Shown here: positions 2,602 through 63,450 of the stretch, in pieces | How the letters are laid out: every line of letters begins with the position of its first letter | How positions within the stretch are numbered: position 1 is the first letter of the stretch | Source: Acidimicrobiales bacterium | GTDB lineage: Bacteria; Actinomycetota; Acidimicrobiia; Acidimicrobiales; Aldehydirespiratoraceae | Direction: 5' to 3' | NCBI GenBank assembly: GCA_965116865.1 | Contig: OZ220727.1 | Coordinates: forward strand, 1,156,798-1,220,797 | Length of the DNA: 64,000 nucleotides | Made by a program: the position numbers and the translations under genes | Notes under the pieces: model-generated | What the model was told of the DNA's origin: nothing | Seen by the model: only the letters and a program-made list of their open reading frames with translations | The model's database searches: none

Positions 2602-2707
2602 CCGTCCGAGTATCGACGATCGGCCCGCACCCGGCAGCGACCGCTGCCCCGAACCCGGCAATGACCGCGAACACCGCCCGAGTATCGACGATCGGCCCAC
2701 GCCCGGC
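2602..2707. repeat. X-Y-X junction repeat, period 72 bp
   Basis: The segment ccg(t/c)ccgagtatcgacgatcggccc.c.cccggc occurs at 2602-2635 and 2674-2707, between tRNA-Arg and tRNA-His. Confidence 0.85.
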
Positions 2708-2753
2708 TTCCGGCGGCTGCGGTACACTGTGCATCGCCCGCTTCGGCGGTCGT

Positions 2754-2828
2754 GGTGGCCGTAGCTCAGTCGGTTAGAGCGCCGGGTTGTGGTCCCGGAG
2801 GTCGGGGGTTCGACTCCCCTCGGTCACC
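2754..2828 (+). tRNA. tRNA-His (anticodon GTG) with encoded G-1
   Basis: Acceptor GTGGCCG/CGGTCAC, with G-1 (2754) opposite C73. D-arm GCTC-AGTCGGTTA-GAGC, anticodon loop TTGTGGT, T-arm GGGGG-TTCGACT-CCCCT. Confidence 0.9.
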
Positions 2829-3026
2829 CGCCCCCTCCCCTGTGCGGAGTCGTCGGTGCCGCCGCGGTCGAAGTCGACGGGTCCCGCCGTGGTCGGGAGA
2901 TGGGCCTTGGGAAGCGTCGCGGCTGCGGCCGGGCGACGCTGCAACCATCGGCAGCGCATGGGCCGACAACACCGCACCTACCGAGCCACGCGACTGGAGT
3001 ATCCGGGCTAGCCTGGAAGCTTGCAA

Positions 3027-3100
3027 GCGCCTCTAGCTCAATCAGGCAGAGCAACGGACTCTTAATCCGCAGGTTCTGGGTTCGAGTCCCAGGGGGCGTA
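3027..3100 (+). tRNA. tRNA-Lys (anticodon CTT)
   Basis: Acceptor GCGCCTC/GGGGCGT, with G1-T72 and T6-G67 wobbles. D-arm GCTC-AATCAGGCA-GAGC, anticodon loop CTCTTAA, T-arm CTGGG-TTCGAGT-CCCAG. Confidence 0.8.
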
Positions 3101-3233
3101 CTTACGCAAATGCAGGGACCATCGCAGGCAGGGGAAGCCGTCGGCACCAGGCTAGGCTGTAAGCGCCGGTCGGGCTCCGCCCGGTGGTGCAGGTCTGGAT
3201 GGACCTCGTGCAGGCGCGAAGGGTGACGCCGAC

Positions 3234-4130
3234 ATGGACCGCTACGCGATATTCGTAGACGCCGAGTTCCTCTACCGAGAGGGCGGCGTGCTGTGCTGCA
3301 ACAGCCCGGACCGGCAAGAGATCCTCCTCTACGCCCTAGGCGCCAACGACTTCCTCGTCGGTCTCGCGACTGAGGTCTGCGATCTCCGGCCGCTTCGCAC
3401 CTATTGGTACGACACCTCGAGCGACGGGGCGCCGACCCCGGCCCAGCAGATGGTGGCGACGCTTCCCGACATGAAGCTGCGACTCCAGACCGGCGCCGGC
3501 CAGGACTCGCAATCGTCGCTGGGCGCGGCGATCCGGCGCGACCTGTCCACGCTGGCCCGCGAGCGGGCCATCTGCGACGCCTTCCTGCTGACGGACGACG
3601 AGGATCTGCTCGACTGCGTCCTCGAGGTCCAGGACCAGGGACTGCGGGTGACCCTGATCGACATCGCGTCGCATGGGGAGAGCGGGGAGGGGCCGGCCAG
3701 ACTGGCCAACGAATCGGACGAGGTCATCAAATTGACCAAGGACGATCTGTCGAGGTTCATCAGACGCCGACGCACTCCCGACGACGCTTCTGCCGACACC
3801 TACGACCCGGTCGACTCGGTCGCCGCAGCAGCGGCAGCCTTCGCCGAGAACTGGCTCTGCCAGGCCAGCGACGACGAGTTCTACGCCATGCTCGGCCATC
3901 GCCCCCGCATACCCGAATCGCTGGACGGCGACCTGCTCTACGCTGTCGAGAACGTGATCGGTGGAAGCCTGCGAGGCCAGGACCGCCTCAGGATCGCTGT
4001 GCGCCAGGCCTTCTGGAACAGGATCGAACAGGAGATCGAAGGACTGGCCCCTGAACCGGTGCGGTCTGCGGCACGGGAGGCGGGACCGCCGAACCGCACA
4101 CGGATGAATCAGTCCGCGGGACCGCGGTAG
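3234..4130 (+). CDS. NYN (LabA/DUF88-like, PIN-fold) domain protein with uncharacterised C-terminal half
   Basis: N-terminus MDRYAIFVDAEFL and the later segment AFLLTDDEDLLDCVLEVQDQGLRVTLI match the acidic-residue pattern of NYN ribonuclease-like domains. 298-aa ORF. Confidence 0.65.
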   Translation: MDRYAIFVDAEFLYREGGVLCCNSPDRQEILLYALGANDFLVGLATEVCDLRPLRTYWYDTSSDGAPTPAQQMVATLPDMKLRLQTGAGQDSQSSLGAAIRRDLSTLARERAICDAFLLTDDEDLLDCVLEVQDQGLRVTLIDIASHGESGEGPARLANESDEVIKLTKDDLSRFIRRRRTPDDASADTYDPVDSVAAAAAAFAENWLCQASDDEFYAMLGHRPRIPESLDGDLLYAVENVIGGSLRGQDRLRIAVRQAFWNRIEQEIEGLAPEPVRSAAREAGPPNRTRMNQSAGPR

Positions 4131-5180: not shown

Positions 5181-6332
5181 TCAGCCGAGAGCGTCGACAA
5201 TGAGGTCGGCGTTGGTACGCACGAAGTCGACGTAGGTCTCGGCGCCGCTGCCGGCGGGACCGAGGCTGCCGGTGTAGAGCGTGACCACGTCGACGTCGCC
5301 GACCCGGTCGGCCAGCGCCTCGACGTCGTCGACGGAGTGCAGGGTCTCGGCGAAGATGGCCTTGATCCCCTCGTGCTCGATGATCTCGGCCAGCTCCTCG
5401 AGCCCGGCGGGGCTGGCCTGCGCCATGCTCGCCGGCGTCGGGATGACCGTGCCGATGAGCTCGAACCCGTAGCGGTCGGCGAAGTACCCGAGCGCCTCGT
5501 GGTTGGTGACCAGCTTGCGGCTCTCGGCGGGGAGTCGCTCGACCTTGGCGGCGACCTCGGCGTCCACCGCCTCCAGCTCGGCCAGGTAGCTGTCCAGGCA
5601 GGCTTCGATCGCGGCGGAGTCGAGACCGACCTCGCTCGTCAGCACCCGGGCGAGGCTCGACAGCGCACCCGACACCCGCTGAGGATCGAACCACACGTGG
5701 GGATCGCCTCCGCTGCCGTGGCCCTCTTCCTCGTGGCCCTCTTCTTCTTCCTCGTGGCCCTCTTCTTCCTCGTGGCCCTCTTCTTCCTCGTGGCCCTCTT
5801 CTTCCTCGTGACCCTCTTCTTCCTCGTGACCCTCTTCTTCCTCGTGTCCTTCGTCTTCTCCACCCTCGCCGTGGTGGTGAGCGCCCTCGAACGAGAACGG
5901 GATGGTCTCCATCCCGTCTGCGAACTCGAACACCGGCGTGCCCGACTCTGCGACTGCTTCGAGCGTGTCTTCGAGGGCCTCCTCCAGCTCCAGGCCGTTG
6001 GCCACCACCAGCGCGGCGTTCTCCATGAGGGCCCGGTCCTGAAGGGAGGGCTCGTAGCTGTGGGGATCGCCGCCGACTGGGATGATCGTCTCGATGTCGG
6101 CCAGCCCGCCGCAGGCCACGTTCGAGACGATGTCGGCCCAGATGCCCGTGGTTACCAGGATTGCCGGAGTCTCAGCGGCAGCCTCGGGCTCGGCCTCTGA
6201 GTCAGTGCCGTCCCCGCTGCACGCTGCGGCTGTCAGGGCCATGACGGCAACAGCCGCGGACATGGCCGTCAGTATCGATGGTCGGGCGCGGGCGGCTGCA
6301 ATGGCGGTGCCGGGGCTTGCTGAACGGATCAC
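5181..6332 (-). CDS. znuA: metal ABC transporter substrate-binding lipoprotein (ZnuA/TroA family) with His/Glu-rich loop
   Basis: Cluster-9 binding-protein-like sequence with lipobox LTAAAC. Loop HHHGEGGEDEGHEEEEGHEEEEGH... The preferred start is GTG 6332, with AAGGAG (6340-6345) 7 nt upstream. The track ORF extends to TTG 6368. Confidence 0.8.
   Translation of the reverse strand: MIRSASPGTAIAAARARPSILTAMSAAVAVMALTAAACSGDGTDSEAEPEAAAETPAILVTTGIWADIVSNVACGGLADIETIIPVGGDPHSYEPSLQDRALMENAALVVANGLELEEALEDTLEAVAESGTPVFEFADGMETIPFSFEGAHHHGEGGEDEGHEEEEGHEEEEGHEEEEGHEEEEGHEEEEGHEEEEEGHEEEGHGSGGDPHVWFDPQRVSGALSSLARVLTSEVGLDSAAIEACLDSYLAELEAVDAEVAAKVERLPAESRKLVTNHEALGYFADRYGFELIGTVIPTPASMAQASPAGLEELAEIIEHEGIKAIFAETLHSVDDVEALADRVGDVDVVTLYTGSLGPAGSGAETYVDFVRTNADLIVDALG
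5717..5852. repeat. coding 18-bp repeat encoding (GHEEEE)n
   Basis: About 7-8 tandem copies of ctcttcttcctcgtggcc-like units on the plus strand. Confidence 0.85.
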
Positions 6333-9922: not shown

Positions 9923-10264
9923 CCTGGAACGGACCTCAGAGCAAACGCAGACAGGCGAGAGTCCCAGCCCCATTCGCCGGTCACGCGCACCCTGCCCGCT
10001 GGAACGGACCTCAGAGCAAACGCAGACAGGCGAGAGTCCCAGCCCCATTCGCCGGTCACGCGCACCCTGCCCGCTGGAACGGACCTCAGAGCAAACGCAG
10101 ACAGGCGAGAGTCCCAGCCCCATTCGCCGGTCACGCGCACCCTGCCCGCTGGAACGGACCTCAGAGCAAACGCAGACAGGCGAGAGTCCCAGCCCCATTC
10201 GCCGGTCACGCGCACCCTGCCCGCTGGAACGGACCTCAGAGCAAACGCAGACAGGCGAGAGTCC
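9923..10264. repeat. 75-bp tandem array, 4.5 copies
   Basis: The segment ggaacggacctcagagc starts at 9926, 10001, 10076, 10151 and 10226. The last unit runs directly into dispersed-repeat copy 2. Confidence 0.95.
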
Positions 10265-20110: not shown

Positions 20111-21209
20111 GCTCGGCCGTCCCGCGGTCGCCGGCGCCGGCTACGGTGCGGCGCTCGCCGATCTCCCACCGGATCCGATAGTTGAGGAGCACGGCCACCG
20201 CCAGCGCTGCGAGAAGGATCAACGCCTGCAGGATCACCGAGATCGACGACTCCACACCGAGCGTCTGGATCGACTGGCCGCCGACCTGCACAGCGCCGAA
20301 CACGCAGGCCACCACGGCCACGCCGGAGGGCCGCATCAGCGCGAGCGCGGCCACGATGATTCCCGCGTATCCGTAGCCGTTCGACAGGCCGGGAGACAGA
20401 CGGCTGGCCGTCCCGGTCAACTCCACCGCCCCGGCCAGTCCGGCGATGGCTCCGGACAGCAGCAGAGAGACCAAGATCTTGCGCTCCAAGGAGATCCCCG
20501 CATAGCGCGCCGTCGCCGCCGACGATCCAGCGACCCGGAGCTCGTACCCCCAGGCGGTGCGCGCCACCGCCAGCCAGAACACGATCAGCAGCCCCGCCGC
20601 CATCAGCACACCGACATGCGCCCGACCGAACAGCACCGGCAAGGACGACTGGTCGGGCAGTTCGGCGATGACCGCGAACCCGAACGAGTCGGGATCCTTC
20701 CAAGGCCCCACCTCGAGCCATTCGACGATCCGGATCGACACCTCCACCAGCATCAGGGTGGTGATGATCTCGTTCACGTTCAGGTACGCACGGGCCAGCG
20801 CCGGCCCGACGGCGAGAACCAGTCCCCCCAGCGCGCCGGCGGCGACCATCACCACGATCAGCGGCGGCCCGGCGAGGTCCTCAGCCACTAGGGCGACGGC
20901 GGTGGCCAGCGTGGCGCCGGCCATCATCTGACCCTCCGCTCCGATGTTCCAGAGCCCCATCGACCCCGCCACCGCCACCGCCAGCCCGGTCAACGCCAGC
21001 GGGGTGGCCCTCACCAGGGTGCGCGACAGCGAGTCGGTCCCGCCGAGAGAGGAGTCCAGCATCCGCTCGTACACGGTGATCGGGGAATGGCCCGAAGCCG
21101 CCAGCAGGACCGCGCCCACCACGAGGGCCGCTCCGATCCCGACCAGGAAGGCGACGCCCTGCGCAGCCGGCACCACGCGCTCGCGCCGCTGGAGCACCGG
21201 AAGGATCAT
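20103..21209 (-). CDS. ABC transporter permease (BMP/nucleoside-type system)
   Basis: Polytopic ORF. The likely start is ATG 21209 (MILPVLQRRERVV). The upstream 53 codons of the track ORF are repeat read-through. Confidence 0.8.
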   Translation of the reverse strand: MILPVLQRRERVVPAAQGVAFLVGIGAALVVGAVLLAASGHSPITVYERMLDSSLGGTDSLSRTLVRATPLALTGLAVAVAGSMGLWNIGAEGQMMAGATLATAVALVAEDLAGPPLIVVMVAAGALGGLVLAVGPALARAYLNVNEIITTLMLVEVSIRIVEWLEVGPWKDPDSFGFAVIAELPDQSSLPVLFGRAHVGVLMAAGLLIVFWLAVARTAWGYELRVAGSSAATARYAGISLERKILVSLLLSGAIAGLAGAVELTGTASRLSPGLSNGYGYAGIIVAALALMRPSGVAVVACVFGAVQVGGQSIQTLGVESSISVILQALILLAALAVAVLLNYRIRWEIGERRTVAGAGDRGTAERV

Positions 21210-21368
21210 GGCCCCACCCGCACGGCGGCCCCGCGGCCGCGGAATGGTCCCGCAACTGCCAATGGGATCATGAGACGCACCCGCACGGCGGCCCCGCGGC
21301 CGCGGAATGGTCCCGCAACTGCCAATGGGATCATGAGACGCACCCGCACGGCGGCCCCGCGGCCGCAT
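21201..21368. repeat. 63-bp tandem array (2.4 copies) between the ATPase stop and the permease start
   Basis: Units start with acccgcacgg at 21216, 21279 and 21342. Each unit ends gggatcatgagacgc, mimicking the permease start region ggaaggatcatg. Confidence 0.9.
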
Positions 21369-27566: not shown

Positions 27567-27673
27567 GTCGCCGGGGTCTTCGGCGGACTGATTCGAGTTC
27601 GTGCGCGCGGCGCGCCGAAAATCGTCCAGCCCCTCGAGTCGCCGGGGTCTTCGGCGGACTGATTCGAGTTCGT
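27567..27673. repeat. X-Y-X junction repeat, period 71 bp
   Basis: The segment gtcgccggggtcttcggcggactgattcgagttcgt occurs at 27567-27602 and 27638-27673, between the Fic start and tRNA-Pro. Confidence 0.9.
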
Positions 27674-27853: not shown

Positions 27854-29560
27854 ATGAGCCCACTTCACGAAGCCCAGCGCAGGGCCGACGCGATCAAGCG
27901 ATATCTAGCGCCCGAGTCGTTGGAAGACGCTCTGGACGTGCTCGCGACGCGCGGCCCCTCGGCACGGGCCATCGCCGGCGGCACCGACCTGCTGTTGGAA
28001 CTCAGCCGCGGCGCGCGGACCGGCATCGACACCCTCGTCGATCTGAGCGTGCTCGACGGGCTCGACACCATAACCGAGCACCGTGAGCGGGTCGAGCTGG
28101 GGCCCCTCGTCACCCACGCCGATGTCGTCGGGTACGAGAGGATGCCGTCGGTGGGACTGCCGCTCGCGCAGGCCTGCCTGGAAGTCGGAGGACCGCAGCT
28201 CCGCAACCGGGCCACGGTCGCCGGCAACATCGTCACAGCCAGTCCCGCCAACGACACTGTCTCCGCTCTGTACGCGCTCGGCGCCGACGTGACCGTCTCA
28301 TCAGCCGGAGGCGGCAACCGGACCATGCCGATCTCGGACTTCCTCACCGGTTTCCGCACCACCGCGCTGCAACCGGGCGAACTGGTGACCAGGATCGCCT
28401 TCGACGTCTTGGGAGGCCCCCGGCGGGGGATCTTCGTGAAGCTCGGGCTGAGGAGGGCGCAGGCCATCTCGGTGGTCCACGCCGCCGCGGTCGTCACCGA
28501 AGACAGCGACGGCGCCGTGGCCGACCTGGTGGTGGCTCTCGGAAGCGTCGGCCCGACCATCGAACTGGTGGACGCAGCCGTCGGCATAGCCAGGGGCCGG
28601 CGCCTCGCCGCCGCCGCCGCCGACGTAGCGGCCGCGTCACGGGCTGCGGTCACACCCATCGACGACCTGCGCGCCACAGCCGAGTACCGCAGCCGCACGG
28701 TCGAGGCAGTGGTGGAACGAGCGCTGCGCTCGCTGGCGGCCGGCACCGAGGCCGCCACCTGGCCGTATCGGCCTCCGCGCCTCGCGGCGGCCGCCCGCCC
28801 CGCAGCAGCGCCCGCGCCAGCGACCGACGGCGCCTCGCGGCGGGAGGACGCCGACGACAGCGCCGCCACCCGCGACGTGCTCACGGGCAGCGCCGTCGCC
28901 ACGGGCTCGCAGCGGGAGATCACCGACGGCAACACCATCACGGCGACCCACACCCCCGGCTGGCAGCTCCACCGGCCAGACGTTCGGGAGATCACCGACG
29001 GCAACACCATCACGGCGACGGTCAACGGCGTCGAGCGCCGCGCTGCCAACGCCGCGGGGCGCACGCTGCTCGACTGGCTGCGACTCGACCTCGGACTGAC
29101 CGGCACCAAGGAGGGCTGCGCCGAGGGCGAGTGCGGCGCCTGCACCGTCCATCTCGACGGCCGAGCCGTGCTGGCGTGTCTGGTGCCGGCCGCCCGGGCC
29201 GCCGCCGCCAGCGTCACCACGGTCGAGGGTCTGGCCTCGCCGGACGGAGCGCTGCATCCGGTCCAGCAGGCCCTGGCGGACTGCGGGGGCGTCCAGTGCG
29301 GCTTCTGCACCCCCGGGTTCGTGATGAGCGCCGCCATGCTGGCCGAGGAGGAGCCCCACCCGAGCCGGGCACAGGTGGAGCACGGTCTGGCCGGGAACCT
29401 GTGCCGCTGCACGGGGTACTACTCGATCATCAACTCCCTCACCGACAGCGACGCGTCCCCCGCCGCCGACACCACACCGCGAACCGGCAGCCACAAGCCC
29501 TCGAACGGGACTCCCCCGCCGCCGACTCCCACCGACGCGTCCGGAGCGGCCGGGCTGTGA
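27854..29560 (+). CDS. fused FAD-binding (CoxM/XdhB-like) and [2Fe-2S] (CoxS/XdhC-small-like) subunit of a molybdenum hydroxylase
   Basis: The N-terminal half has AIAGGTDLLLEL and other FAD-binding features. The C-terminal part has GCAEGECGACTV, QCGFCTPG and NLCRCTGY. An Ala/Pro-rich linker contains a 72-bp duplication. Confidence 0.85.
   Translation: MSPLHEAQRRADAIKRYLAPESLEDALDVLATRGPSARAIAGGTDLLLELSRGARTGIDTLVDLSVLDGLDTITEHRERVELGPLVTHADVVGYERMPSVGLPLAQACLEVGGPQLRNRATVAGNIVTASPANDTVSALYALGADVTVSSAGGGNRTMPISDFLTGFRTTALQPGELVTRIAFDVLGGPRRGIFVKLGLRRAQAISVVHAAAVVTEDSDGAVADLVVALGSVGPTIELVDAAVGIARGRRLAAAAADVAAASRAAVTPIDDLRATAEYRSRTVEAVVERALRSLAAGTEAATWPYRPPRLAAAARPAAAPAPATDGASRREDADDSAATRDVLTGSAVATGSQREITDGNTITATHTPGWQLHRPDVREITDGNTITATVNGVERRAANAAGRTLLDWLRLDLGLTGTKEGCAEGECGACTVHLDGRAVLACLVPAARAAAASVTTVEGLASPDGALHPVQQALADCGGVQCGFCTPGFVMSAAMLAEEEPHPSRAQVEHGLAGNLCRCTGYYSIINSLTDSDASPAADTTPRTGSHKPSNGTPPPPTPTDASGAAGL
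28914..29019. repeat. X-Y-X repeat, period 72 bp, in frame inside the CoxM-CoxS linker
   Basis: The segment gggagatcaccgacggcaacaccatcacggcgac occurs at 28914-28947 and 28986-29019. The protein reads REITDGNTITAT twice. Confidence 0.9.
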
Positions 29561-34188: not shown

Positions 34189-34595
34189 CCCCCACAGCCC
34201 CCATCCTCACGCATTTCTCGATACTCCTCCACGCGAAAACTCCCACCAACCACACGATCCCGCGGATCCAGCGCCGCCGTCGCCGTGACGCTCACGGCCC
34301 GCCACCGCCGCCGCAGCCGACACCTGCGCAGCCGACAGCGCCGCCATCGCCGACCTCGACACCACCAACATCTCACGCAACTCCGAACACGACGCCGCGC
34401 CCGCGCCCACCAGCTCCAGCATCTCGGAGGCAGCGGCCTCGGCCCGACGAGCGGCTTCGATCAACATGCACACAGCATCCCACAGGGGTATGACATCCAC
34501 CCCCCACAGCCCCCATCCTCACGCATTTCTCGATACTCCTCCACGCGGAACTCCCACCAACCACGCGATCCCGCGGATCTAGCGCCGCCGTCGGT
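33957..34595. repeat. 311/312-bp tandem duplication covering the 5' end and upstream region of the HNH gene
   Basis: The segment cagcgccgccgtcgccgtgacgctcacgg starts at 33957 and 34269, with a third partial start at 34580. By eye the copies are about 97% identical. Confidence 0.9.
34207..34500 (-). pseudogene. duplicated N-terminal fragment of the DUF222/HNH gene
   Basis: MDVIPLWDAVCMLIEAARRAEAAASEMLELVGAGAASCSELREMLVVSRSAMAALSAAQVSAAAAVAGRERHGDGG is nearly identical to residues 1-76 of the 32155..34188 product. It then diverges and stops. Confidence 0.8.
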
Positions 34596-34662
34596 TGTCG
34601 TGGTCATCTTCGACGACCTCGTCGAGGCCATCCATGCGGTTCCGCGGATCTAGCGCCGCCGC
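34571..34662. repeat. X-Y-X junction repeat, period 71 bp
   Basis: The segment ccgcggatctagcgccgccg occurs at 34571 and 34642. Confidence 0.75.
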
Positions 34663-35742: not shown

Positions 35743-35850
35743 GCGCGCCGCGCGGCGCTCCGCGGTCAAGGCCCGCACCCGAATCGCTGCTGCCTGCCTC
35801 GCTCACGGCTCACGCGCGCCGCGCGGCGCTCCGCGGTCAAGGCCCGCACC
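35743..35850. repeat. X-Y-X repeat, period 71 bp, disrupting the IS110 transposase frame
   Basis: The segment gcgcgccgcgcggcgctccgcggtcaaggcccgcacc occurs at 35743-35779 and 35814-35850. Confidence 0.9.
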
Positions 35851-36218
35851 GCCGCCGTCAACCAGATCAAAGCGCTGTTGGTGACCGCCCCCGAGCAGAT
35901 CGCCGCCCCGCTGCGGGGCCTTCGCACCGCCGCTTTGGTCGGTGCCTGTGCTCGACTGCGGCCCGATACCGCCGGCGGCGAGGCTGCCGGCGCGGCGAAG
36001 AGGACCATGCGCGGCCTGGCGCGACGGCACCGGGCGCTCAGCGGCGAGATAGACGAGCTCGACGCTGAGATCGCCCGCCTGTGCATGCAGGCGAATCCCG
36101 CTTTGATGGCCGCGCCCGGCGTCGGCGCGCAGACTGCCGCCGCGCTGCTCGTCGCCGCTGGCGACAACCCGCGGCGCCTGCACAGCGAGGCGTCCCTCGC
36201 GGCGCTCTGCGGAGCCGG

Positions 36219-36306
36219 CCCCATCGAGGCGTCCTCGGGGCGCACAATGGCTGTCCTCGTGGGCCGCGACAGCCAGTCGCCCCATCGAGGCGTCCTCGGG
36301 GCGCAC
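36219..36306. repeat. X-Y-X repeat, period 61 bp, disrupting the IS110 transposase frame
   Basis: The segment ccccatcgaggcgtcctcggggcgcac occurs at 36219-36245 and 36280-36306. Confidence 0.9.
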
Positions 36307-36765: not shown

Positions 36766-37026
36766 TACCGGCCGAGGCTAGTCAGGGGACCTCCGTCGAC
36801 AGCGTCGTGGTGTTCCCATACGGTGCCGAGTTCGAGGCACCGGCCGAAGCTGGTCAGAGGACCTCCGTCGACAGCGTCGTGGTGTTCCCATACGGTGCCG
36901 AGTTCGAGGCACCGGCCGAAGCTGGTCAGAGGACCTCCGTCGACAGCGTCGTGGTGTTCCCATACGGTGCCGAGTTCGAGGCACCGGCCGAAGCTGGTCA
37001 GGGGACCTCCGTCGACAGCGTCGTGC
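36766..37026. repeat. 72-bp tandem array (3.6 copies)
   Basis: The segment gacctccgtcgacagcgtcgtg starts at 36788, 36860, 36932 and 37004. Confidence 0.95.
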
Positions 37027-38392: not shown

Positions 38393-38467
38393 GTGCGGCC
38401 CCCTTGTTCTCTCCGGCACGGAACCGATCTGGGCATCGTCGCGCACCGACCGGATCCGTCTCTTCTA

Positions 38468-38819
38468 GCCGCGGCCGACGCACAACTGGGCGATCCCCCG
38501 CCGACCCAGCGTCGAGGCACCGACCACCCTCGGAATCCTCCTCAAGCCGCGGCCGACACACAACTGGGCGATCCCCCGCCGACCCAGCGTCGAGGCACCG
38601 ACCACCCTCGGAATCCTCCTCAAGCCGCGGCCGACACACAACTGGGCGATCCCCCGCCGACCCAGCGTCGAGGCACCGACCACCCTCGGAATCCTCCTCA
38701 AGCCGCGGCCGACACACAACTGGGCGATCCCCCGCCGACCCAGCGTCGAGGCACCGACCACCCTCGGAATCCTCCTCAAGCCGCGGCCGACACACAACTG
38801 GGCGATCCCCCGCCGACCC
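38468..38819. repeat. 78-bp tandem array (4.5 copies) in a divergent intergenic region
   Basis: The segment gccgcggccgac starts at 38468, 38546, 38624, 38702 and 38780. Confidence 0.95.
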
Positions 38820-39741: not shown

Positions 39742-40400
39742 GCCGCGGCGGCGAACTGCACCGCCAGAGGCTCGACACCGGAGCCTGCGACGTCGGCGAG
39801 CCGTCCGGGACCGACTATGCGGCCTTGACAACGCACCGCCAGAGGCTCACACCGGAGCCTGCGACGTCATCTGACAGCGTCGACGAGCAGCACCTCAGGA
39901 GTTCCCTCGCCGTCTGGCTCGTGCGCGTCCGCGACGGCGCCGACCCCGACCCGGTCGCCGCCACACGCTTCGCGGACGTGTCCGCCGACCATCCCCACGC
40001 CGCGTTCATAGAACGCTTCGCTCAACTCGAAGTCACCGAAGGCTGCCGCGACGGCACCCGCTACTGCCCCGACGACACCGTCACCCGTGCCCAGATGGCG
40101 AGCTTCCTGCACCGTGCCCGGACCCTGAAACTCCTCGAGCTCGACGACGCGCCCGCGCTGGAGGTGCTCCGAGCCGACCCGCACCTGGTGGGCACCTACC
40201 CGCCGCCGGTGGTCATAATGGCAGCGCCTCCCCGCGGTGTTCGACGCCGTGAGACGGGCCGTGGACGACGACCGCTCCCCGGGGCGGTTCCTCATCACCG
40301 GCTCAACCTCGCCCAAGCGGCCTCCGACCACCACTCTTCACGGCTGAGCCGATGCACGGCTTCGGCCACGACATCGAGCATGGTCGTGCCCCGCTGCTGA
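39738..40400 (+). pseudogene. composite remnant: SLH-like domain fragment followed by a fragment of a DUF4143-type AAA ATPase
   Basis: FADVSADHPHAAFIERFAQLEVTEGCRDGTRYCPDDTVTRAQMASFLHRA is SLH-like. In another frame at about 40240-40350, AVFDAVRRAVDDDRSPGRFLITGSTSP parallels residues of the 41708..43000 ATPase (GRPGQFILTGSAVP). Confidence 0.35.
39759..39868. repeat. X-Y-X repeat, period about 75 bp
   Basis: The segment caccgccagaggctcgacaccggagcctgcgacgtc occurs at 39759. The second copy at 39834 has a 1-nt deletion. Confidence 0.85.
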
Positions 40401-40640: not shown

Positions 40641-40641
40641 T

Positions 40642-44004: not shown

Positions 44005-44550
44005 GGAAGACCCCCGCGTGGGCGGCGCCTCAGACGGTCCACCTCCTCGCAGACCCGGCGCTTGGGGAAGACCCCCGCGTGGGCGGCGCCTCACCCCCGG
44101 ATCCGTCGCAGCGCCTCTGTCGCGTTCATCGGCAAAGCGGTCCGCACCCGCGTGGGCGGCCCTTCACCCCCGGATCCGTCGCAGCGCCTCTGTCGCGTTC
44201 ATCGGCAAAGCGGTCCGCACCCGCGTGGGCGGCCCTTCACCCCCGGATCCGTCGCAGCGCCTCTGTCGCGTTCATCGGCAAAGCGGTCCGCACCCGCGTG
44301 GGCGGCCCTTCACCCCCGGATCCGTCGCAGCGCCTCTGTCGCGTTCATCGGCAAAGCGGTCCGCACCCGCGTGGGCGGCCCTTCACCCCCGGATCCGTCG
44401 CAGCGCCTCTGTCGCGTTCATCGGCAAAGCGGTCCGCACCCGCGTGGGCGGCGCCTCACTCCCGGATCCGTCGCAGCGCCTCTGTCGCGTTCATCGGCAA
44501 AGCGGTCCGTACCCGCGTGGGCGGCCCTTCACCCCCGGATCCGTCGCAGC
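44005..44550. repeat. tandem array, 8 X copies (first interval 61, then 75, then 72 bp x5), seeded on the HIT gene stop
   Basis: The segment acccccgcgtgggcgg / acccgcgtgggcgg starts at 44010, 44071, 44146, 44218, 44290, 44362, 44434 and 44506. The unit contains ccttcacccccggatccgtcgcagc, which is the last 6 codons plus the TGA of the HIT gene. Confidence 0.95.
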
Positions 44551-45134: not shown

Positions 45135-45135
45135 G

Positions 45136-47188: not shown

Positions 47189-47464
47189 GAGCCGCTCCAA
47201 GGGGGCCGAGCCGCCCCAAGGAGGTCTCGTGCGGACGACTCCCTGCAGCCGCCGACGCCGGAGCCTCACCGTGCGCATCGCCCGCAACCGGAGAGGTCTC
47301 GTGCGGACGACTCCCTGCAGCCGCCGACGCCGAGATCTGGCAGCGGCGGCGCTGGTGCCCCAAGGAGGTCCCGTGCGGACGACTCCCTGCAGCCGCCGAC
47401 GCCGAGAGCTGGCAGCGGCGGCGCTGGTGCCCCAAGGAGGTCTCGTGCGGACGACTCCCTGCAG
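47189..47464. repeat. repeat-spacer-like array, period 72 bp (X 40 bp, Y 32 bp), in the thrS/fabI divergent region
   Basis: X (gaggtctcgtgcggacgactccctgcagccgccgacgccg) occurs at 47221, 47293 and 47365, with a partial copy at 47437. Y1 at 47261-47292 differs from Y2 and Y3 (47333, 47405), which differ from each other by 1 nt. Confidence 0.9.
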
Positions 47465-47582: not shown

Positions 47583-48350
47583 GTGGGCATCCTCGACGGC
47601 AAGCGCATCGTCGTCACCGGAGTCCTGACCGATGCCTCGCTCGCCTACGGCGCGGCCGCGCTGGCACTGGCCGAGGGCGCCGAGATCGTTTTGACCGGAG
47701 CCGGCCGGGCCATGCGCCTCACCCAGCGCACCGCCCGCAAGCTCGGCGACGGCATCGACGTGGTGGAGTTCGACGCTACCGAGCCGTCCCACGCCGACGC
47801 CCTGCGCGAGCACCTCGCCGGCAGCTGGGGGCAGGTGGACGGCGCGCTCCACGCCATCGGGTTCGCTCCCGAGGTGTGCCTGGGCGGCACGTTCATGGAA
47901 GCCAGCTGGGAAGACGTCAAGGTGGCGCTGGAGATCTCCACCTACTCGCTGAAGATGCTCGCCGACGCGGTCGCTCCTCTGATGCCGGCCGGCGGCTCGA
48001 TCCTGGGCCTGGACTTCGACGCCACCCGTGCCTGGCCGGGCTACGACTGGATGGGCGTGGCCAAGGCCGGCCTCGAGTCCACCTGCCGGTACCTGGCCCG
48101 CTACCTCGGACCGAAGGGGATCCGGGTGAACCTGGTCTCCGCCGGTCCGATGAGGACCATGGCCGCACGCTCCATCCCCGGCTTCTCCGACTTCGAGGAC
48201 GCCTGGGCGATGCGGGCGCCGCTCGGTTGGAGCGTCACCGACCCGACCGGCGTGTCGCGCACGATCGTGGCCATGCTGAGCGACTGGCTGCCGGCCACCA
48301 CCGGATCGGTCGTGCATGCGGACGGCGGCTACCACGCCGTCGGCGCCTGA
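47583..48350 (+). CDS. fabI: enoyl-[acyl-carrier-protein] reductase (NADH), FabI/InhA type
   Basis: GTG 47583 gives (M)GILDGKRIVVTGVLTDASLAYG. Later segments include GYDWMGVAKAGLES and VNLVSAGPMRT. Confidence 0.85.
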   Translation: MGILDGKRIVVTGVLTDASLAYGAAALALAEGAEIVLTGAGRAMRLTQRTARKLGDGIDVVEFDATEPSHADALREHLAGSWGQVDGALHAIGFAPEVCLGGTFMEASWEDVKVALEISTYSLKMLADAVAPLMPAGGSILGLDFDATRAWPGYDWMGVAKAGLESTCRYLARYLGPKGIRVNLVSAGPMRTMAARSIPGFSDFEDAWAMRAPLGWSVTDPTGVSRTIVAMLSDWLPATTGSVVHADGGYHAVGA

Positions 48351-48353
48351 GCA

Positions 48354-48546
48354 TCCCGAGCACCGGATCCGCCGAGCGTCGGACAATCTCGGCTTGCCGC
48401 CTCCGGCTCGCCCCATGGTGCGAACTCGGCAACGGAGCGGGCTCCAGAGCGTCCCGAGCACCGGATCCGCCGCGCGTCGGACAATCTCGGCTTGCCGCCT
48501 CCGGCTCGCCCCATGGTGCGAACTCGGCAACGGAGCGGGCTCCAGG
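48354..48546. repeat. 98-bp tandem duplication (about 2 copies) between convergent genes
   Basis: The segment tcccgagcaccggatccgcc occurs at 48354 and 48452. Confidence 0.9.
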
Positions 48547-48595
48547 CCGCACCGTGTCGCCGGGCCGGAGACCGGCTGAGAAACCGTTGCAACCC

Positions 48596-49654
48596 TCACG
48601 GGCCGCTGTCGTCGGTCTCGTCGAAGATGTCGCCCACCAGGCCCTCGAGGATGTCCTCCAGGGTGACCACGCCCAGCATGCGCCCGGTGTCGCTTCGCAC
48701 CAGAGCCATGTGAACTCGCGACCGCCGCATGTCGAGCAGGAGGTCGCGACCGGCCATATCAGGGCCCACCACCCGCATGCGGCGCACCAACTCCAACGGC
48801 AGCGGATCGTCGCAGGCCTCCTCCGGCATGCGGATCAGGTCCTTGGCGTGGACGAACCCCAGCACGTCGTCGGGTTCCGACCCCCACATCGGGATCCGGG
48901 TGTGTCCGGTGGCGGCCACCACATCCTCGAGTCGGGCCGCGGACGCCCCCCGGGGCACGGACACCAGCCGGTCGGCGGGCACCATCACCGATCCGACCGA
49001 CTGGGCACGGAACTCCAGCGCGCCCGACAGCAACTCGTGCTCGGTGGGCTCGATCACGCCCTCCTCGCGGGCGCCCGCGAGCAGCGTCCGGAACTCGTTG
49101 ATGGTGAGCGCGGTGTTGATCTCGTCCACCGGATTGATGCCCATCAGGCGCACGATGCGGTTCCCCACGAAGTTGAGGGACGCGATGACCGGTCTGAACA
49201 CTGCACCGTAGATGCGCATGGCCGGCGCCAGCAGCCGTGCCGACGCCTCCGGCTCGGCAATGGCCATGTTCTTGGGGACCATCTCGCCCACCACCACATG
49301 CAGCGTCGTCACCACGAACAGCGCCACCGCGAAGGAGATCGTGTGCAGGACGCCGGACGGAACCTCCACGACCCTCTCGATGACCGGCTCGATGAGGTGG
49401 GCGATGGCCGGCTCGGCCACATAGCCCAGCACCAGCGAGGCCATGGTGATGCCGAACTGGGCTCCAGCGAGCTGGGTCTGCAGGTCGCGCACCGCTGCCA
49501 GGGCGATGCCGCTGCGCCTGTCGCCGTCGGACGCGGCCGCCTCCAAGCGAACAGCACGGGCCGCGACCAGCGCGAACTCGGCCGCCACGAAAAAGGCGTT
49601 GGCCCCGAGCATCACCACCGCCACAACCAAGGCTACGACCGTCGCCGTGCTCAC
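48596..49654 (-). CDS. CNNM/CorC/TlyC family protein (DUF21 + CBS pair)
   Basis: GTG 49654 gives VSTATVVALVVAVVMLGANAFFVAAEFALV (DUF21), followed by CBS-pair-like regions. The track ORF start at 49849 lies inside the repeat. Confidence 0.8.
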   Translation of the reverse strand: MSTATVVALVVAVVMLGANAFFVAAEFALVAARAVRLEAAASDGDRRSGIALAAVRDLQTQLAGAQFGITMASLVLGYVAEPAIAHLIEPVIERVVEVPSGVLHTISFAVALFVVTTLHVVVGEMVPKNMAIAEPEASARLLAPAMRIYGAVFRPVIASLNFVGNRIVRLMGINPVDEINTALTINEFRTLLAGAREEGVIEPTEHELLSGALEFRAQSVGSVMVPADRLVSVPRGASAARLEDVVAATGHTRIPMWGSEPDDVLGFVHAKDLIRMPEEACDDPLPLELVRRMRVVGPDMAGRDLLLDMRRSRVHMALVRSDTGRMLGVVTLEDILEGLVGDIFDETDDSGP

Positions 49655-49876
49655 CGCGACACCCCCGAACCGACCAAGCACCGACCCCGCCGAAAAAAAC
49701 AGCCCACAACCGTCGCCGCGCTCACCGCGACACCCCCGAACCGACCAAGCACCGACCCCGCCGAAAAAACAGCCCACGACCGTCGCCGTGCTCACCGCGA
49801 CACCCCCGAACCGACCAAGCACCGACCCCGCCGAAAAAACAGCCCGCAACCGTCGCCGTGCTCACCGCGACACCCC
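49636..49876. repeat. 70/71-bp tandem array (3.4 copies) seeded on a GTGA stop/start junction
   Basis: The segment g(t/c)gctcaccgcgacaccccc occurs at 49647, 49718, 49788 and 49858. The A7 tract at 49693-49699 contrasts with A6 tracts in the other units. Confidence 0.95.
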
Positions 49877-51235
49877 CGGTGCTGCCGGGCCGCACCCGTC
49901 CCTTCGCCCCAGCGCGGGCGCGGCTACGGATACGACAGGCGCCGCCACCCGGACAGCGGCGATCCTCAAACGGTCGACAGCCACCACCTCGAGGCGCCAG
50001 CCGTCCACGGTGACGACCTCGCCGGGCACCGGTATGTGGCCCAGCCTGTCCAGCACCAGCCCGGCCAGCGTCTCGTAGCCGCCTTCGGGCATGGCGAAGC
50101 CGGTAGCGTCGAACACCTCGTCGGTGTGCAGCGACGCGGACAGCACCGTCGAGCCCCGGGACTCGGACCGGGTGCGCTCAGGGGTGGACGAGTCGTGCTC
50201 GTCGTCGATCTCACCGACGATCTCCTCAAGCACGTCCTCGAGGGTGATGATCCCCGCCGTGCCGCCGTGCTCGTCGACCACCACGGCCAGCAGACCCGCG
50301 CCGGCGCGCAGGTCGTGCAGGATGTCGTTGAGATCGCGGGACTCGGGCACGGCAAGCACCGGCTGCATCAACTGCGACACCGGCGTGGAATGCCGTTGCG
50401 GCCCGGGCACGGCGAACAGCGATTTCACATGGACCACGCCGGCCACGTTGTCGAGATGGCCCGCCGTGACCGGAAACCGGGAATGGCCGGTGCCGACGGC
50501 CAGTTCGGCGAGGTAAGCCACCGAGGCGTCGGCCTCGATGGCGACCACCTCCACCCTGGGCACCATGGCGTCGTCGGCCTGCTTGTCGGCCAGGCGGATC
50601 GACCGGGTGAGCAGCCACACCTCGTCCTCGTCGAGCATCCCCCCCTGCCCCGATGAAACGAAGAGGTGTTCGAGTTCGTCGCGATCAGGCACCGTGTCTA
50701 TCTCCTCGCGCGGCTCCATGCCGAGTCGGCGCACCATCCAGTTGGCCGCGCCGTTGAGGAAAGCCACCACAGGCCGGGCCAGCACGCCGTACACGGTGGT
50801 CGGAACGGCCACCGCCACCGCTGTCCCGAAGGGCTTCGTGGTGGCCACCGCCTTGGGGACGAGCTCGCCCATCATCATCTGCACGATCGTGGCCAGCATC
50901 AGCGCGACCGCGACGGACACGCCCGAGGGCGTGTTGCCCCCGAACAGCGCCTCGACTCCGGGCGCAATCATCGGCGCCAGGGCCGGTTCGACCATGAAGC
51001 CGAGAAGCAACGACGAGACCGTGATGCCGATCTGCGCGCCCGACAGGTGAAACGACAGCCGGGCCACCAAGCGCTGGACCATCCGGGCCCGGCGGTCTCC
51101 GGCCCCTGCCCGTTCGTCCACTCGGGTGCGGTCCACCGCCACCAGCGCGAACTCCATGGCGACGAAGAAGGCGTTGGCTGCCATCAGCGCGAGAGCGGCC
51201 AAGAGCCACAGCGCGGTCTCTATCGGTCCTCCCAA
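49862..51235 (-). CDS. CNNM/CorC/TlyC family protein (DUF21 + CBS pair + CorC_HlyC)
   Basis: N-terminus LLAALALMAANAFFVAMEFALVAVDR, then CBS-like segments and the C-terminal transporter-associated domain. 457 aa. Confidence 0.85.
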   Translation of the reverse strand: MGGPIETALWLLAALALMAANAFFVAMEFALVAVDRTRVDERAGAGDRRARMVQRLVARLSFHLSGAQIGITVSSLLLGFMVEPALAPMIAPGVEALFGGNTPSGVSVAVALMLATIVQMMMGELVPKAVATTKPFGTAVAVAVPTTVYGVLARPVVAFLNGAANWMVRRLGMEPREEIDTVPDRDELEHLFVSSGQGGMLDEDEVWLLTRSIRLADKQADDAMVPRVEVVAIEADASVAYLAELAVGTGHSRFPVTAGHLDNVAGVVHVKSLFAVPGPQRHSTPVSQLMQPVLAVPESRDLNDILHDLRAGAGLLAVVVDEHGGTAGIITLEDVLEEIVGEIDDEHDSSTPERTRSESRGSTVLSASLHTDEVFDATGFAMPEGGYETLAGLVLDRLGHIPVPGEVVTVDGWRLEVVAVDRLRIAAVRVAAPVVSVAAPALGRRDGCGPAAPGVSR

Positions 51236-52708: not shown

Positions 52709-53110
52709 TTGCATCTCGCTATTCTCAGTGCTAAGGTGGAGGATGTGCAGACGCTCTCATTCGCAGACCTGGCGCCCGTGCTCGCCGCCGTCCTCGGACC
52801 GATACTGCTGTTAGCGGTCACGATCATGCGCTACCAGCACGTCGACAGCACCAAGACCCGCGACCTCATCGACCGCAACCGCGAAGCCAGCGAACAAGCC
52901 CACAAAGAAACCCGCGACCTCATCGACCGCAACCGCGAAGCCAGCGAACAAGCCCACAAAGAAACCCGCGACCTCATCGACAAGAACTATCGGGAGATGG
53001 TCAGCGGCCTCGGACGCGCCGATGCGCGACTGAGCCGCATAGAGGGCACCCTGGGTATTCTGTCGGCGACTGCTCACAACGTGGACGACAGCGGCACCGA
53101 GGCAGCCTGA
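52709..53110 (+). CDS. small membrane-anchored protein with 18-aa tandem repeat
   Basis: One TM segment, LAPVLAAVLGPILLLAVTIM. TRDLIDRNREASEQAHKE occurs 2.3 times, encoded by a 54-bp repeat at 52856-52981. AAGGTGGAGG lies upstream of the alternative GTG starts at 52736 and 52745. Confidence 0.55.
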   Translation: MHLAILSAKVEDVQTLSFADLAPVLAAVLGPILLLAVTIMRYQHVDSTKTRDLIDRNREASEQAHKETRDLIDRNREASEQAHKETRDLIDKNYREMVSGLGRADARLSRIEGTLGILSATAHNVDDSGTEAA

Positions 53111-53147: not shown

Positions 53148-53325
53148 GTCGTTCCGGAGGACCGCGACCTGACGGCACCGCACCCCCGGGCTCCGGAACC
53201 TCACCGGCATGTTCCTCGCAGACCGTGACCTGACGGCACCGCACCCCCGGGCTCCGGACAAGCCCGCAGCCTCATGAGGCAAGTCGTTCTGGAGGACCGC
53301 GACCTGACAGCGCCGCGCCGGTGCC
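53148..53325. repeat. three-copy X-Y repeat (intervals 61 and 74 bp) between convergent genes
   Basis: The segment gaccg(c/t)gacctgac(g/a)gc(a/g)ccgc occurs around 53161, 53222 and 53296. Confidence 0.75.
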
Positions 53326-55380: not shown

Positions 55381-55492
55381 GCCCGCGCAACAGAGACAAC
55401 GCCTGTGGTTGTCGCACCTTGAAGATCTCGTCGGCGGTCATGCGCCGCACGGAGCCCGCGCAACATAGACAACGCCTGTGGTTGTCGCACCT
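55381..55492. repeat. X-Y-X junction repeat, period 73 bp, seeded on the stop of the 55491..56912 gene
   Basis: The segment gcccgcgcaaca(g/t)agacaacgcctgtggttgtcgcacct occurs at 55381-55419 and 55454-55492. Each X carries the hairpin gacaac-gcctgtg-gttgtc. Confidence 0.9.
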
Positions 55493-57103: not shown

Positions 57104-57194
57104 GTCCGGTCAGACCGCGTCGGGGGCGATGGTCCGACCGCATCGCCGTTGCCGCCGCCGGCGCCGTCCGGTCAGACCGCGTCGGGGGCGATGG
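57104..57194. repeat. X-Y-X junction repeat, period 62 bp, seeded on the amidase stop
   Basis: The segment gtccggtcagaccgcgtcgggggcgatgg occurs at 57104-57132 and 57166-57194. The second copy contains the amidase TGA (57172-57174). Confidence 0.9.
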
Positions 57195-60677: not shown

Positions 60678-60708
60678 GCCGCGAGTGTTGCACGCCCAGC
60701 CACGGCTG

Positions 60709-60885
60709 GCAGAACAAAGCACGCGCGCGCACGCCATGCACGACCGGTGCGCGTGTTTGGACCGAACACGCGCACCGGTGGCAGAACAAAGCGCGCGCAC
60801 GCCATGCACGACCCCGGTGGCCCGGCCCCGGTGGACGGCCCGCAGCCGCGCAGAACAAAGCACGCGCGCGCACGCCATGCACGAC
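60709..60885. repeat. repeat-spacer-like array (X 36/32/36 bp, two unrelated Y of 36 and 37 bp) in the murF/ddl divergent region
   Basis: X (gcagaacaaagc(ac)gcgcgc(gc)acgccatgcacgac) occurs at 60709, 60781 and 60850. Y1 (60745-60780) is a perfect 14-bp-stem hairpin. Y2 (60813-60849) is unrelated to Y1. Confidence 0.9.
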
Positions 60886-60935
60886 GCTGCCATTTCGGCG
60901 CCGGCGCTAGCGTCGTCGGCGTGGAGGACCGCAGG

Positions 60936-62048: not shown

Positions 62049-62139
62049 CAGGCCGATCGGCGCGCCGTGCATGGCGAGCGGCCCGTGATGCCGGTGGATT
62101 CAGGCTCCATCAGAAGTCGGCCGCGCTCGGCAGCAGGCT

Positions 62140-62403
62140 TCATCGAGACCTGCAGACGTCGCGGCGATGGCCGACGCGGATCACATGGATCACCAGGCGC
62201 TCGCCGATGACCTCATACAAGATCCGATAGTCGCCGACGCTCACCCGATACACGGACTCCTCACCCGCGAGAGCGACACAGTTCGGAGGCCTCGGCTCGT
62301 CAGCCAGCAGGTCTATCGCGGCTCGAACACGGCGCTGTTCGTGACGGGGCGCGGTTGGAGTTGGTGTTACCGCGTTCATTCGTCGCAGCATCGCCGGGGT
62401 CAC
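62140..62403 (-). CDS. relE: RelE/ParE-family toxin, N-terminally atypical and without a cognate antitoxin gene
   Basis: C-terminal YRVSVGDYRILYEVIGERLVIHVIRVGHRRDV is the canonical RelE/ParE core. The N-terminal strand and helix are replaced by repeat-derived sequence. Confidence 0.6.
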   Translation of the reverse strand: MTPAMLRRMNAVTPTPTAPRHEQRRVRAAIDLLADEPRPPNCVALAGEESVYRVSVGDYRILYEVIGERLVIHVIRVGHRRDVCRSR

Positions 62404-62459
62404 GGCCTCGACGTCCAGTCAATAGTTGGAGTTGGTGCTACCGCGTTCATTCGTCACAG
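62354..62459. repeat. X-Y-X junction repeat, period 71 bp, at the relE 5' end
   Basis: The segment gttggagttggtg(t/c)taccgcgttcattcgtc(g/a)cag occurs at 62354-62388 and 62425-62459. X contains an ATGA stop/start junction on the minus strand. Confidence 0.9.
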
Positions 62460-62520
62460 TGTCTTGAGACCGGCTGAACTGGAGAGATTTCGTATGATGT
62501 TCCACCCTCGCCGAGGCCGC

Positions 62521-63279
62521 TCACCCAGCCTGACCCTCAGCCGCTCCGGGTTGGATGTCGAGGAGGGGGCCGAGCTCCCGGAGGCGGGCGCGTCGTATGC
62601 GGTAGTCGGGCACGGCCTGGGCGACCACAGCCCAGTATTCGGGCGTGTGGCCGCGGACGCGCAGGTGTGCGAGCTCGTGGGCGATCACGTAGTCGAGGAG
62701 GGCGGGCGGGGCCATGACGGCACGCCAGTTGAAGCGCAGCGTGCCGTCCGGGGCGCAGCTCGCCCAGCGGCGGCGCTGACCGCGGACGAGGACCGCTTTC
62801 GGCTGCGCGCCGAGGAGGCTCGCGATGCGCTCCACGCGCGGCGGGAGCTTCAGCGCGGCGCGGTCGCGGTACCACGCCTCGAATGCGGCCCGCACCTTCT
62901 CGAGCCGTTCCTCGCCTCGCAGAAAGCGGGGGACGCCGACGTCGAACTCCCAGTGGTGGAACCCGACCTCGACCCTGGCGCCGTCGATGGGATGCACGGT
63001 GAGGCGCACCGACCGGCCGAGATAGGGCAGGGACTCGCCGCTGACGAACCGGCGGGGCGGTGCGCACGCCGTGGCCGCGCCGTCGTGCCGGACGATCCAG
63101 CCGGCACGGCGACGCACAGTCTCCTCGACTTGCTCCGCAGGCGTGTCGACAGGCGCCGCCACCCTGACGACACCGGGCGCATCGACGGTGACCTCGATCG
63201 TCTTGCGCCGTCTCGGGCTGCGGACGACCTGGTACTCGATCCGGGCTTCGCCGAAGACGACCTCCCCGCGCTCTGTCAC
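62521..63279 (-). CDS. DUF45/YgjP-like (M48-type) zinc metallopeptidase
   Basis: The HELAHL zinc motif lies within LDYVIAHELAHLRVRGH. The real start is GTG 63279 (VTERGEVVFGEARIEYQVVRS). This gene type is a common companion of type I R-M systems. Confidence 0.8.
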   Translation of the reverse strand: MTERGEVVFGEARIEYQVVRSPRRRKTIEVTVDAPGVVRVAAPVDTPAEQVEETVRRRAGWIVRHDGAATACAPPRRFVSGESLPYLGRSVRLTVHPIDGARVEVGFHHWEFDVGVPRFLRGEERLEKVRAAFEAWYRDRAALKLPPRVERIASLLGAQPKAVLVRGQRRRWASCAPDGTLRFNWRAVMAPPALLDYVIAHELAHLRVRGHTPEYWAVVAQAVPDYRIRRARLRELGPLLDIQPGAAEGQAG

Positions 63280-63450
63280 ACGAGCCTCTTGCGGGCCATC
63301 TCCATGACCTTCGAGCACCGCGACGACGACGCCGTACAGGCCCGCGTCACACGAGCCTCTTGCGGGCCATCTCCATGACCTTCGAGCACCGCGACGACGA
63401 CGCCGTACAGGCCCGCGTCACACGAGCCTCTTGCGGGCCATCTCCATGAC
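63275..63450. repeat. 71-bp tandem array (X-Y-X-Y-X) seeded on the hsdR stop / DUF45 start GTGA junction
   Basis: X (gtcacacgagcctcttgcgggccatctccatgac) occurs at 63275, 63346 and 63417. Y (cttcgagcaccgcgacgacgacgccgtacaggcccgc) occurs twice. Confidence 0.95.

Follow-up and report, generated by a model that had tools for sequence, protein, structure and literature searches.

Integration of spacers outside CRISPR arrays has been shown mainly in engineered Escherichia coli. Nivala, Shipman & Church (2018, Nat Microbiol 3:310) are reported to have described off-target spacer integration giving "neo-CRISPR" loci in E. coli with over-produced Cas1-Cas2. A 2018 preprint termed the natural evidence for such loci, which came from two other species, circumstantial and found it unclear whether such arrays commonly arise; the natural importance of off-target integration has been an open question. 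For type I-G (formerly I-U) systems, the Cas4/1-Cas2 machinery of Geobacter sulfurreducens selects a TTN protospacer-adjacent motif (PAM) and takes up mostly 36-bp spacers (Almendros et al. 2019, PMC6547450). Here, we analyzed 64,000 nucleotides of an Acidimicrobiales bacterium of the Aldehydirespiratoraceae (GenBank assembly GCA_965116865.1; contig OZ220727.1, hereafter C1, positions 1,156,798-1,220,797), which we refer to as the window, within a genome consisting of one 3.32-Mb contig with 68.5% G+C. The window is populated by short tandem arrays in which a locus-specific segment, X, lies on both sides of a second segment, Y, and ~690 such X-Y-X loci are found across the genome. Judged from sequence, we place a probability of roughly 0.88 on these loci being scars of off-target (ectopic) integration by Cas4/1-Cas2 followed by local amplification. 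Coordinates without the C1 prefix are those of the window.

A first-pass annotation of the window had listed 21 such arrays. All 21 were recovered by an offset self-match scan and also, in the same places, by Tandem Repeats Finder (TRF) or a direct-repeat scan (Table 1). With low-complexity hits and the true CRISPR array excluded, the family has 574 members with periods of 70-76 (125 kb) and 112 with periods of 60-63 (19 kb) genome-wide, for a total of 686 loci and ~144 kb, which is ~4% of the 3.3-Mb genome. Locus density is ~21 per 100 kb, and 20 family loci fall in the window. A bare X-Y-X is the commonest form in both period ranges (324/574 and 68/112, respectively). The periodicity pattern is far above chance. 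In the period range 58-80, TRF detected 365 arrays, of which 123 form a spike at period 72, and genome-wide self-matches at offsets 71, 72, 73, 74, and 75 numbered 96, 488, 181, 135, and 115, with 88 at offset 61, against a background of ~0-10 at other offsets not divisible by 3. Loci with periods of 64-69 and 77-80 (110 loci) showed no sharp peak in the length of X and resembled ordinary, mostly coding repeats, and these were excluded from the family.

The terminal phase of the arrays supports the earlier observation that each starts and ends with X. A fractional copy number of.35-.65 was found in 263 of the 365 arrays of period 58-80, a half-unit excess (p = 2e-61), and in only 48 of 180 control arrays of period 30-57, in which the distribution was flat. 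The first-pass annotation had given X a loose length of 25-45 bp. The duplicated arm is real, but its length has a sharp peak: 36 nt in arrays of period 71-74 (with a tail at 37-38 nt as chance extension predicts) and 28 nt in those of period 61. This leaves 35-38 nt for Y in the first class, hereafter the 36-nt class, and 33 nt in the 28-nt class. In an all-against-all comparison, 610 of the 686 units (89%) were unique to their locus. Thus, the proposal that units are unrelated between loci holds for these 610 but not for the other 76, which form 30 small clusters. Eight loci with related 71-75-nt units constitute a dispersed family (C1:456844, 643363, 1683759, 2088749, 2314257, 2648833, 2732384, and 3172330) that includes a 19-copy array of 75 bp at C1:1683759-1685109; a repeated element may have received these insertions, or the arrays themselves may have been copied to new places.

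The window was said to contain no cas gene, which is correct for the window itself, but a complete type I-G locus lies ~150 kb to its right on the same chromosome. The intact operon encodes csb1/cas7g, csb2, cas3g, a Cas3-extension protein, a cas4g/cas1g fusion (549 aa; 754 bits versus a cut-off of 560), and cas2, with the last two genes at C1:1369273-1371299. Chromosome-wide searches detected only one Cas1, the I-G cas4/1 protein, and only one Cas2. The canonical array adjoining this operon (C1:1358519-1369107) contains 146 repeats, each exactly 36 nt and thus of the same length as the duplicated arm of the ectopic loci (X mode, 36 nt). Its spacer lengths, ranked 36>37>38>35>39, match those of Y. 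Periods of 71, 72, 73, 74, 75, and 76 occur 10, 66, 32, 29, 6, and 1 times in the canonical array and 23, 129, 60, 27, 17, and 7 times among clean ectopic loci, distributions that are not significantly different (chi-square p = 0.052).

The ectopic loci do not share the one repeat and leader that characterize a canonical array, as X is locus specific and in no case similar to the canonical repeat of 36 nt. Of the 145 canonical spacers, none matched the genome at full length, which is expected if self-spacers in a real array are lethal. Short matches of canonical spacers in congeners were found on inspection to be partial, chance-level alignments and were rejected. One canonical spacer (C1:1361613-1361649) is identical at 27 of 29 positions to the Y of an ectopic array (C1:1107010-1107038), and both may have been sampled from one, possibly foreign, source.

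Comparison of the Y segments with the genome itself revealed discrete sources. Forty-five Y segments had a unique exact match elsewhere in the genome, and in 39 of these the ends of the match deviated from the predicted borders of Y by -2 to +3 nt at most, with exact agreement in 20. Flank controls of equal length matched only inside repeats of 46-1577 nt. A wider search raised the number of distinct Y sources to 61, which are scattered over the chromosome, with 47 in predicted genes. These sources are single-copy chromosomal sequences that were copied border to border, and the inserts are mutually unrelated and have no terminal repeats. In the 36-nt class, T[A/T]N adjoins the source in 28 of 38 cases versus 11.9% at random (p = 1.7e-18), with TAC (11), TTC (7), TTG (6), and TAT (4) as the forms observed. 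This PAM-like motif fits the I-G PAM published for Geobacter (TTN).

We also observed at least two different Y segments between copies of one X at 39 loci, and these loci are true new arrays. For the window, differing Y segments had been reported in two arrays, a report that we found to be clear at 47221 and looser at 60701-60886. At C1:3308529-3308861, six 28-nt arms separate five different 33-nt inserts; other multi-spacer arrays of the 28-nt class are at C1:2184067-2185080, C1:2344214-2344548, and C1:1864312-1864462. Several of the 28-nt arms in such arrays have a CCCCAC...GGCCC(G/C)G-like core in common, which hints that sites re-used often resemble an I-E-type repeat. Where Y is identical throughout a locus, the copies are probably best explained by later slippage or recombination.

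Relatives of this bacterium provided examples of unoccupied sites. In congeners that are 81-88% identical to this genome in the flanking genes, a single X runs straight into the downstream flank with no Y at 28913 (G008, G009, G003, and G005), 49638 (G008 and G012), and 57104 (G008). A single X without Y in congeners implies that X is native, as the first-pass annotation had assumed, and that Y was inserted rather than duplicated from a neighbor. In addition, contigs (Logan) from three independent sponge metagenomes of different studies (2015, 2023, and 2025) bear the flank-X-Y junctions with 0 differences. At 55381..55492, contigs from three metagenomes cover X and Y and end at the second X, where a 31-mer graph must break, and one 2023 contig spans 61847-62628 and thereby the whole 62354 locus with 0 differences. 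No empty-site junction was listed for these contigs, which does not show that such junctions are absent, and of raw Hi-C reads only 26 could be placed, too few to bear on polymorphism. Since independent contigs carry the junctions, the arrays are not artefacts of this assembly.

Arrays had also been described as lying at gene boundaries. In the window, we verified the CNNM/CorC family gene, amidase, murF, and ABC permease neighbors, and the placement is enriched genome-wide, although location statistics are approximate, as they were computed on a crude gene map of our own (73.5% coding). Loci of the 36-nt class lie inside genes in 16% of cases versus 64% expected, and loci are at gene boundaries in 46% of cases versus 16% expected genome-wide. 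Clean loci were inside genes in 38 of 146 cases (26%) when the period is divisible by 3 versus 5 of 119 cases (4%) for other periods (Fisher p = 6e-7). This bias suggests that insertion is frame-blind and that frame-breaking events are purged.

Ectopic Cas1-Cas2 integration was one of two explanations offered for the arrays in the first-pass annotation, and it is now strongly supported by the 36-nt repeat of the resident array, the agreement of spacer and Y lengths, the Y sources with their PAM-like motif, and the empty sites. In the mechanism we propose, the resident I-G Cas4/Cas1-Cas2 would take up prespacers of ~35-39 bp, many of them from its own chromosome beside T[A/T]N. The integrase would skip the leader-proximal repeat and attack both strands of ordinary DNA ~36 bp apart, a distance given by its repeat-length ruler, and gap repair would then copy these 36 bp to leave a Y of about 36 bp between two X arms of 36 bp each. 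Some loci would later expand to X(YX)n, by slippage or by unequal recombination of X arms or of whole units, which would explain why all arrays stop at half a unit. An occasional second integration at the same X would create arrays with different Y segments. Selection would discard gene-breaking insertions, and those left would be intergenic, lie at the ends of genes, or preserve the frame (72 or 75 bp). A self-derived Y would presumably not be turned into a guide RNA, since X is no CRISPR repeat, and hence would be tolerated. The smaller class, with an X of 28 nt and a Y of 33 nt, carries the geometry of a type I-E integrase, the genes for which are absent from the assembly.

Several observations weigh against this interpretation. 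For around 70% of Y segments no source was detected in this genome, which they nonetheless match in G+C content. Searches of phage and plasmid collections for the canonical spacers, from which their native PAM might have been read, gave no match. About 20% of 36-nt-class loci have an X of 40-48 nt, above what chance extension produces (e.g., 9924 and 38467); by analogy with work on Haloarcula, this length suggests slippage of the ruler at sites without repeat-internal anchors. No convincing target-site motif emerged from the small sample of 23 PAM-oriented sites, even though 39 loci received a second hit in an unchanged register. This genome has no Cas1e and thus no cognate cas1 for the 28+33 class. 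A survey of 80-100-kb samples from 13 congeners found 0-4 hits in these period classes in all but one, G035. The poor genomes include the I-G carriers G038, G006, G044, G032, and G005 (0-4 hits in 100-kb samples), indicating that carriage of an I-G system is not sufficient, and the Cas1-less congeners G037, G039, and G011 are poor as well. The 28+33 class is found in G035, which is without Cas1e, and in none of the sampled congeners that bear a type I-E system. G035 itself is a congener of 60% G+C with an I-G Cas1 only, and it is rich in X-Y-X loci of the 36-nt class and of a roughly 28-nt class.

The other explanation in the first-pass annotation was a family of variable-number tandem repeats (VNTRs) similar to mycobacterial interspersed repetitive units (MIRUs), to which may be joined tandem duplication of native intergenic sequence by replication slippage with no integrase. 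Such an origin would suit loci that are intergenic or at gene boundaries and that in many cases reach 2-19 units with near-identical copies, and the amplification step itself probably is slippage or recombination. Plain duplication, however, predicts whole-number copies, whereas 263 of 365 arrays end at about one half. Furthermore, X is fixed at 36 or 28 nt, Y is missing from the empty sites of congeners, and 61 Y segments were each copied as a discrete piece from a distant sequence present once in the genome. With 89% of units being singletons specific to one locus and with Y foreign to its site, a MIRU-like family is not supported, and we give this explanation scarcely any credence. We consider it very improbable that a different mobile element or integrase (casposon-like, transposon, or retron-like) made 36- and 28-bp target-site duplications around a short insert. 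Transposition-like reactions in general leave a target duplication around their insert, the phenomenon is lineage restricted, and cognate cas genes are lacking for the 28+33 class, all of which would agree with such an element. Against it, the single Cas1 homologue is the I-G cas4/1 protein, the duplication equals the resident repeat in length, the insert has the lengths of resident spacers, T[A/T]N fits the I-G PAM, and the inserts are unrelated and without terminal repeats. As the genome is metagenome assembled and short-read unitigs break at the arrays, an assembly artefact also has to be weighed, but its probability is negligible considering that flank-X-Y junctions without differences are present in three independent metagenomes, that one contig spans a whole locus, and that the loci have a biological structure (a frame filter, a PAM-like motif, empty sites in relatives) that artefacts would not give. 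Each of these three explanations is contradicted by the tests described above.

For the smaller class, the first-pass annotation had interpreted the 61-bp period as 28+33. The X of 28 nt and Y of 33 nt are confirmed, but this half of the Cas1-Cas2 explanation is incomplete, as no type I-E adaptation genes were found in the assembly. The sum 61 = 28+33 is the classic I-E geometry. Sources of this class are adjoined by T[A/T]N in only 6 of 23 cases and have an A|G junction at the border in 8 of 23 versus 9.8% at random (p = 0.001). Type I-E systems carry the G of the PAM into the array, which this A|G junction resembles. Cas1e was found above the family cut-off in 4 of 39 genomes of the genus, which makes loss or plasmid carriage of an I-E system plausible. 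Most likely, though with considerable reserve on our part, the 28+33 class is the product of a lost or plasmid-borne I-E adaptation module. Alternatively, the same I-G integrase may have made this class in a second mode. The lack of Cas1e here, the presence of both classes in G035 (the other rich genome) with an I-G Cas1 only, and the lack of 61-class loci in 100-kb samples of I-E-bearing congeners favor this alternative. We regard it as unlikely in view of the missing T[A/T]N enrichment, the A|G junction found instead, and the I-E geometry; moreover, a single ruler with two separate modes (28+33 and 36+36) would, to our knowledge, be without precedent.

Table 1. Arrays of the window, with the start at which the offset self-match scan recovered them
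Position	Recovered start	Form	Description
2595..2707	2606	Degenerate X-Y-X, 36-nt class	Period 72; arms 41 nt, 88% identity
4192..4297	4192	X-Y-X	Period 72; X 34 exact, Y about 36-38
9924..10264	9924	X(YX)4 array	Period 75; units 100% identical; X 41 nt, Y 34 nt; long-X variant
21203..21366	21215	2.6-copy array	Period 63; X 26, Y 37; 5' end of ABC permease gene; not assigned to a class
27567..27673	27567	Clean X-Y-X	X 36 nt, Y 35 nt
28913..29019	28913	X-Y-X	X 35-36, Y 36-37; 5' end of gene preceding xanthine-dehydrogenase-family subunit
34571..34661	34571	Degenerate X-Y-X	Period 71; unit of this segment recurs near C1:2.175 Mb
35743..35850	35743	X-Y-X	Period 71; X 37, Y 34; unit common to C1:1987060 and C1:2174119
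36218..36306	36218	Clean X-Y-X, 28-nt class	X 28, Y 33, period 61
36767..37025	36787	3.6-copy array	Period 72; 3' end of open reading frame (ORF) 36998-38446 (-)
38460..38819	38467	4.6-copy array	Period 78; X 41, Y 37; 5' side of ORF 36998-38446 (-)
39775..39868	39775	Degenerate X-Y-X	Period 74
44005..44093	44005	X-Y-X, 28-nt class	X 28 nt, Y 33 nt; Y identical to C1:972161-972195 (- strand)
44074..44550		6.5-copy array	Period 73; final partial copy 39 nt
47221..47464	47221	Neo-array, one X, two different Y	X about 36-40 nt; period 72
49623..49878	49638	3.4-copy array	Period 70/71; 3' end of CNNM/CorC-family gene
53160..53258	53166	X-Y-X, 28-nt class	Period 61; Y versus C1:2326689-2326721, 1 mismatch
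55381..55492	55381	X-Y-X	Period 73; X 39, Y 34; flanked by convergent ORF ends
57104..57194	57104	X-Y-X, 28-nt class	X 28-29, Y 33-34; amidase gene stop; Y = C1:2100384-2100415, exact
60701..60886	60723	Degenerate three-arm array	Spacings 68-73; two different Y; upstream of murF
62354..62455	62354	X-Y-X	Period 71; X 31+ with 1 mismatch
63275..63450	63275	2.5-copy array	Period 71; X 34, Y 37; units 100% identical

Within the window, exact X has shrunk to 20-23 nt at the older or degenerate loci 2606, 34571, 39775, and 60723. At 44005-44550, a 28+33 insertion abuts a 36-class array with overlapping arms, showing that both classes used nearly the same site. The region 31800-44500 has no syntenic counterpart in G008, G011, and G012 and looks like an island; it contains a large ORF rich in coding repeats of 21, 54, and 57 nt (32754-33416) and a 312-bp repeat in two copies (33957-34593). 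A duplicated segment is suggested by two X-Y-X units of the island that are found again near C1:2.174-2.175 Mb.

We also observed tandem repeats in the window that are unrelated to the family. Four of these are at 24092-24320 (15 bp, 15.5 copies), 5725-5858 (18 bp, 7.3 copies), 14904-14990 (45 bp, 1.9 copies), and 52856-52981 (an exact 54-bp unit, 2.3 copies). As their periods are all divisible by three, they are suggested to be ordinary coding repeats, and the 15- and 18-bp repeats sit within long ORFs. A 98-bp unit (2.1 copies, 96% identity) at 48342-48545 is flanked by two conserved genes and is outside the 36/28 geometry. G008 and G012 have a short unrelated spacer at this site instead, and contigs of two metagenomes link 48348 to 48598 via 16 different letters.

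If ectopic integration is the correct reading, these loci offer snapshots of new arrays being born. They would also make visible a sampling of self DNA that does not show in the canonical array, from which autoimmunity removes such spacers. With ~690 fixed loci over ~144 kb, integration would be the source of most 60-80-bp tandem arrays of the genome and would have altered many gene boundaries. The loci further represent a natural data set on targeting by a type I-G integrase, including how precise its ruler is, which PAM it chooses on self DNA, and how it re-uses sites, and they call for caution with CRISPR finders and VNTR typing in genomes from metagenomes. A broader proposal, which we put forward tentatively as possible rather than probable, is that in some sponge-symbiont Acidimicrobiia a deregulated or low-fidelity Cas4/1-Cas2, together with a now-missing I-E-like integrase, acts as a major, continual mutagenic force that shapes the genome by writing self and foreign DNA into hundreds of ordinary sites, seeding most of the VNTRs, remodeling gene ends and promoters, and repeatedly producing new multi-spacer arrays. 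On this proposal, the genome would give a natural view of the de novo origin of CRISPR arrays, and the ectopic sites may also serve as a safe outlet for self-spacers, which a real array could not carry without killing the cell.

A literature search did not find the same phenomenon in sponge symbionts or Acidimicrobiia. As far as that search reaches, the mechanism is known, and what is new is its natural scale, its occurrence with type I-G, the large self-derived share, the VNTR-like amplification, the frame filter, and the signature of a second integrase. Ectopic integration here would be natural and massive, which bears on the question of its natural importance.

Comparison with described systems places these loci closest to neo-CRISPR arrays. 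Like these loci, mycobacterial MIRU-VNTRs sit at operon junctions in short tandem arrays of 50-100 bp and probably vary in copy number, but MIRUs are a sequence family, whereas here units are unrelated between loci, X and Y have a fixed geometry, and Y is external. With a canonical CRISPR array, the loci share the repeat-spacer-repeat geometry and the repeat and spacer lengths of the resident array. Unlike such an array, they have a native, locus-specific X, no shared repeat, leader, or cas neighbors, and a Y that usually does not differ between the copies at one locus and in many cases comes from the cell's own genome. The resident system resembles that of G. sulfurreducens in its cas4-cas1 fusion, predominant 36-bp spacer, and T-rich 5' PAM (PMC6547450). 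It differs in a T[A/T]N motif of which TAC is the commonest form, in integration outside the array, and in the many chromosomal sources. As is reported for neo-CRISPR loci, a spacer-sized insert lies outside the array, a stretch of genome of repeat length is duplicated on both sides, and repeated integration can grow a new array. In contrast to the rare events reported for an overproduced type I-E system in E. coli, the loci in this genome are natural, fixed, and present at ~690 per 3.3 Mb alongside a type I-G system; they are often self-derived and often amplified to VNTR-like arrays, and they include a second, I-E-like class.

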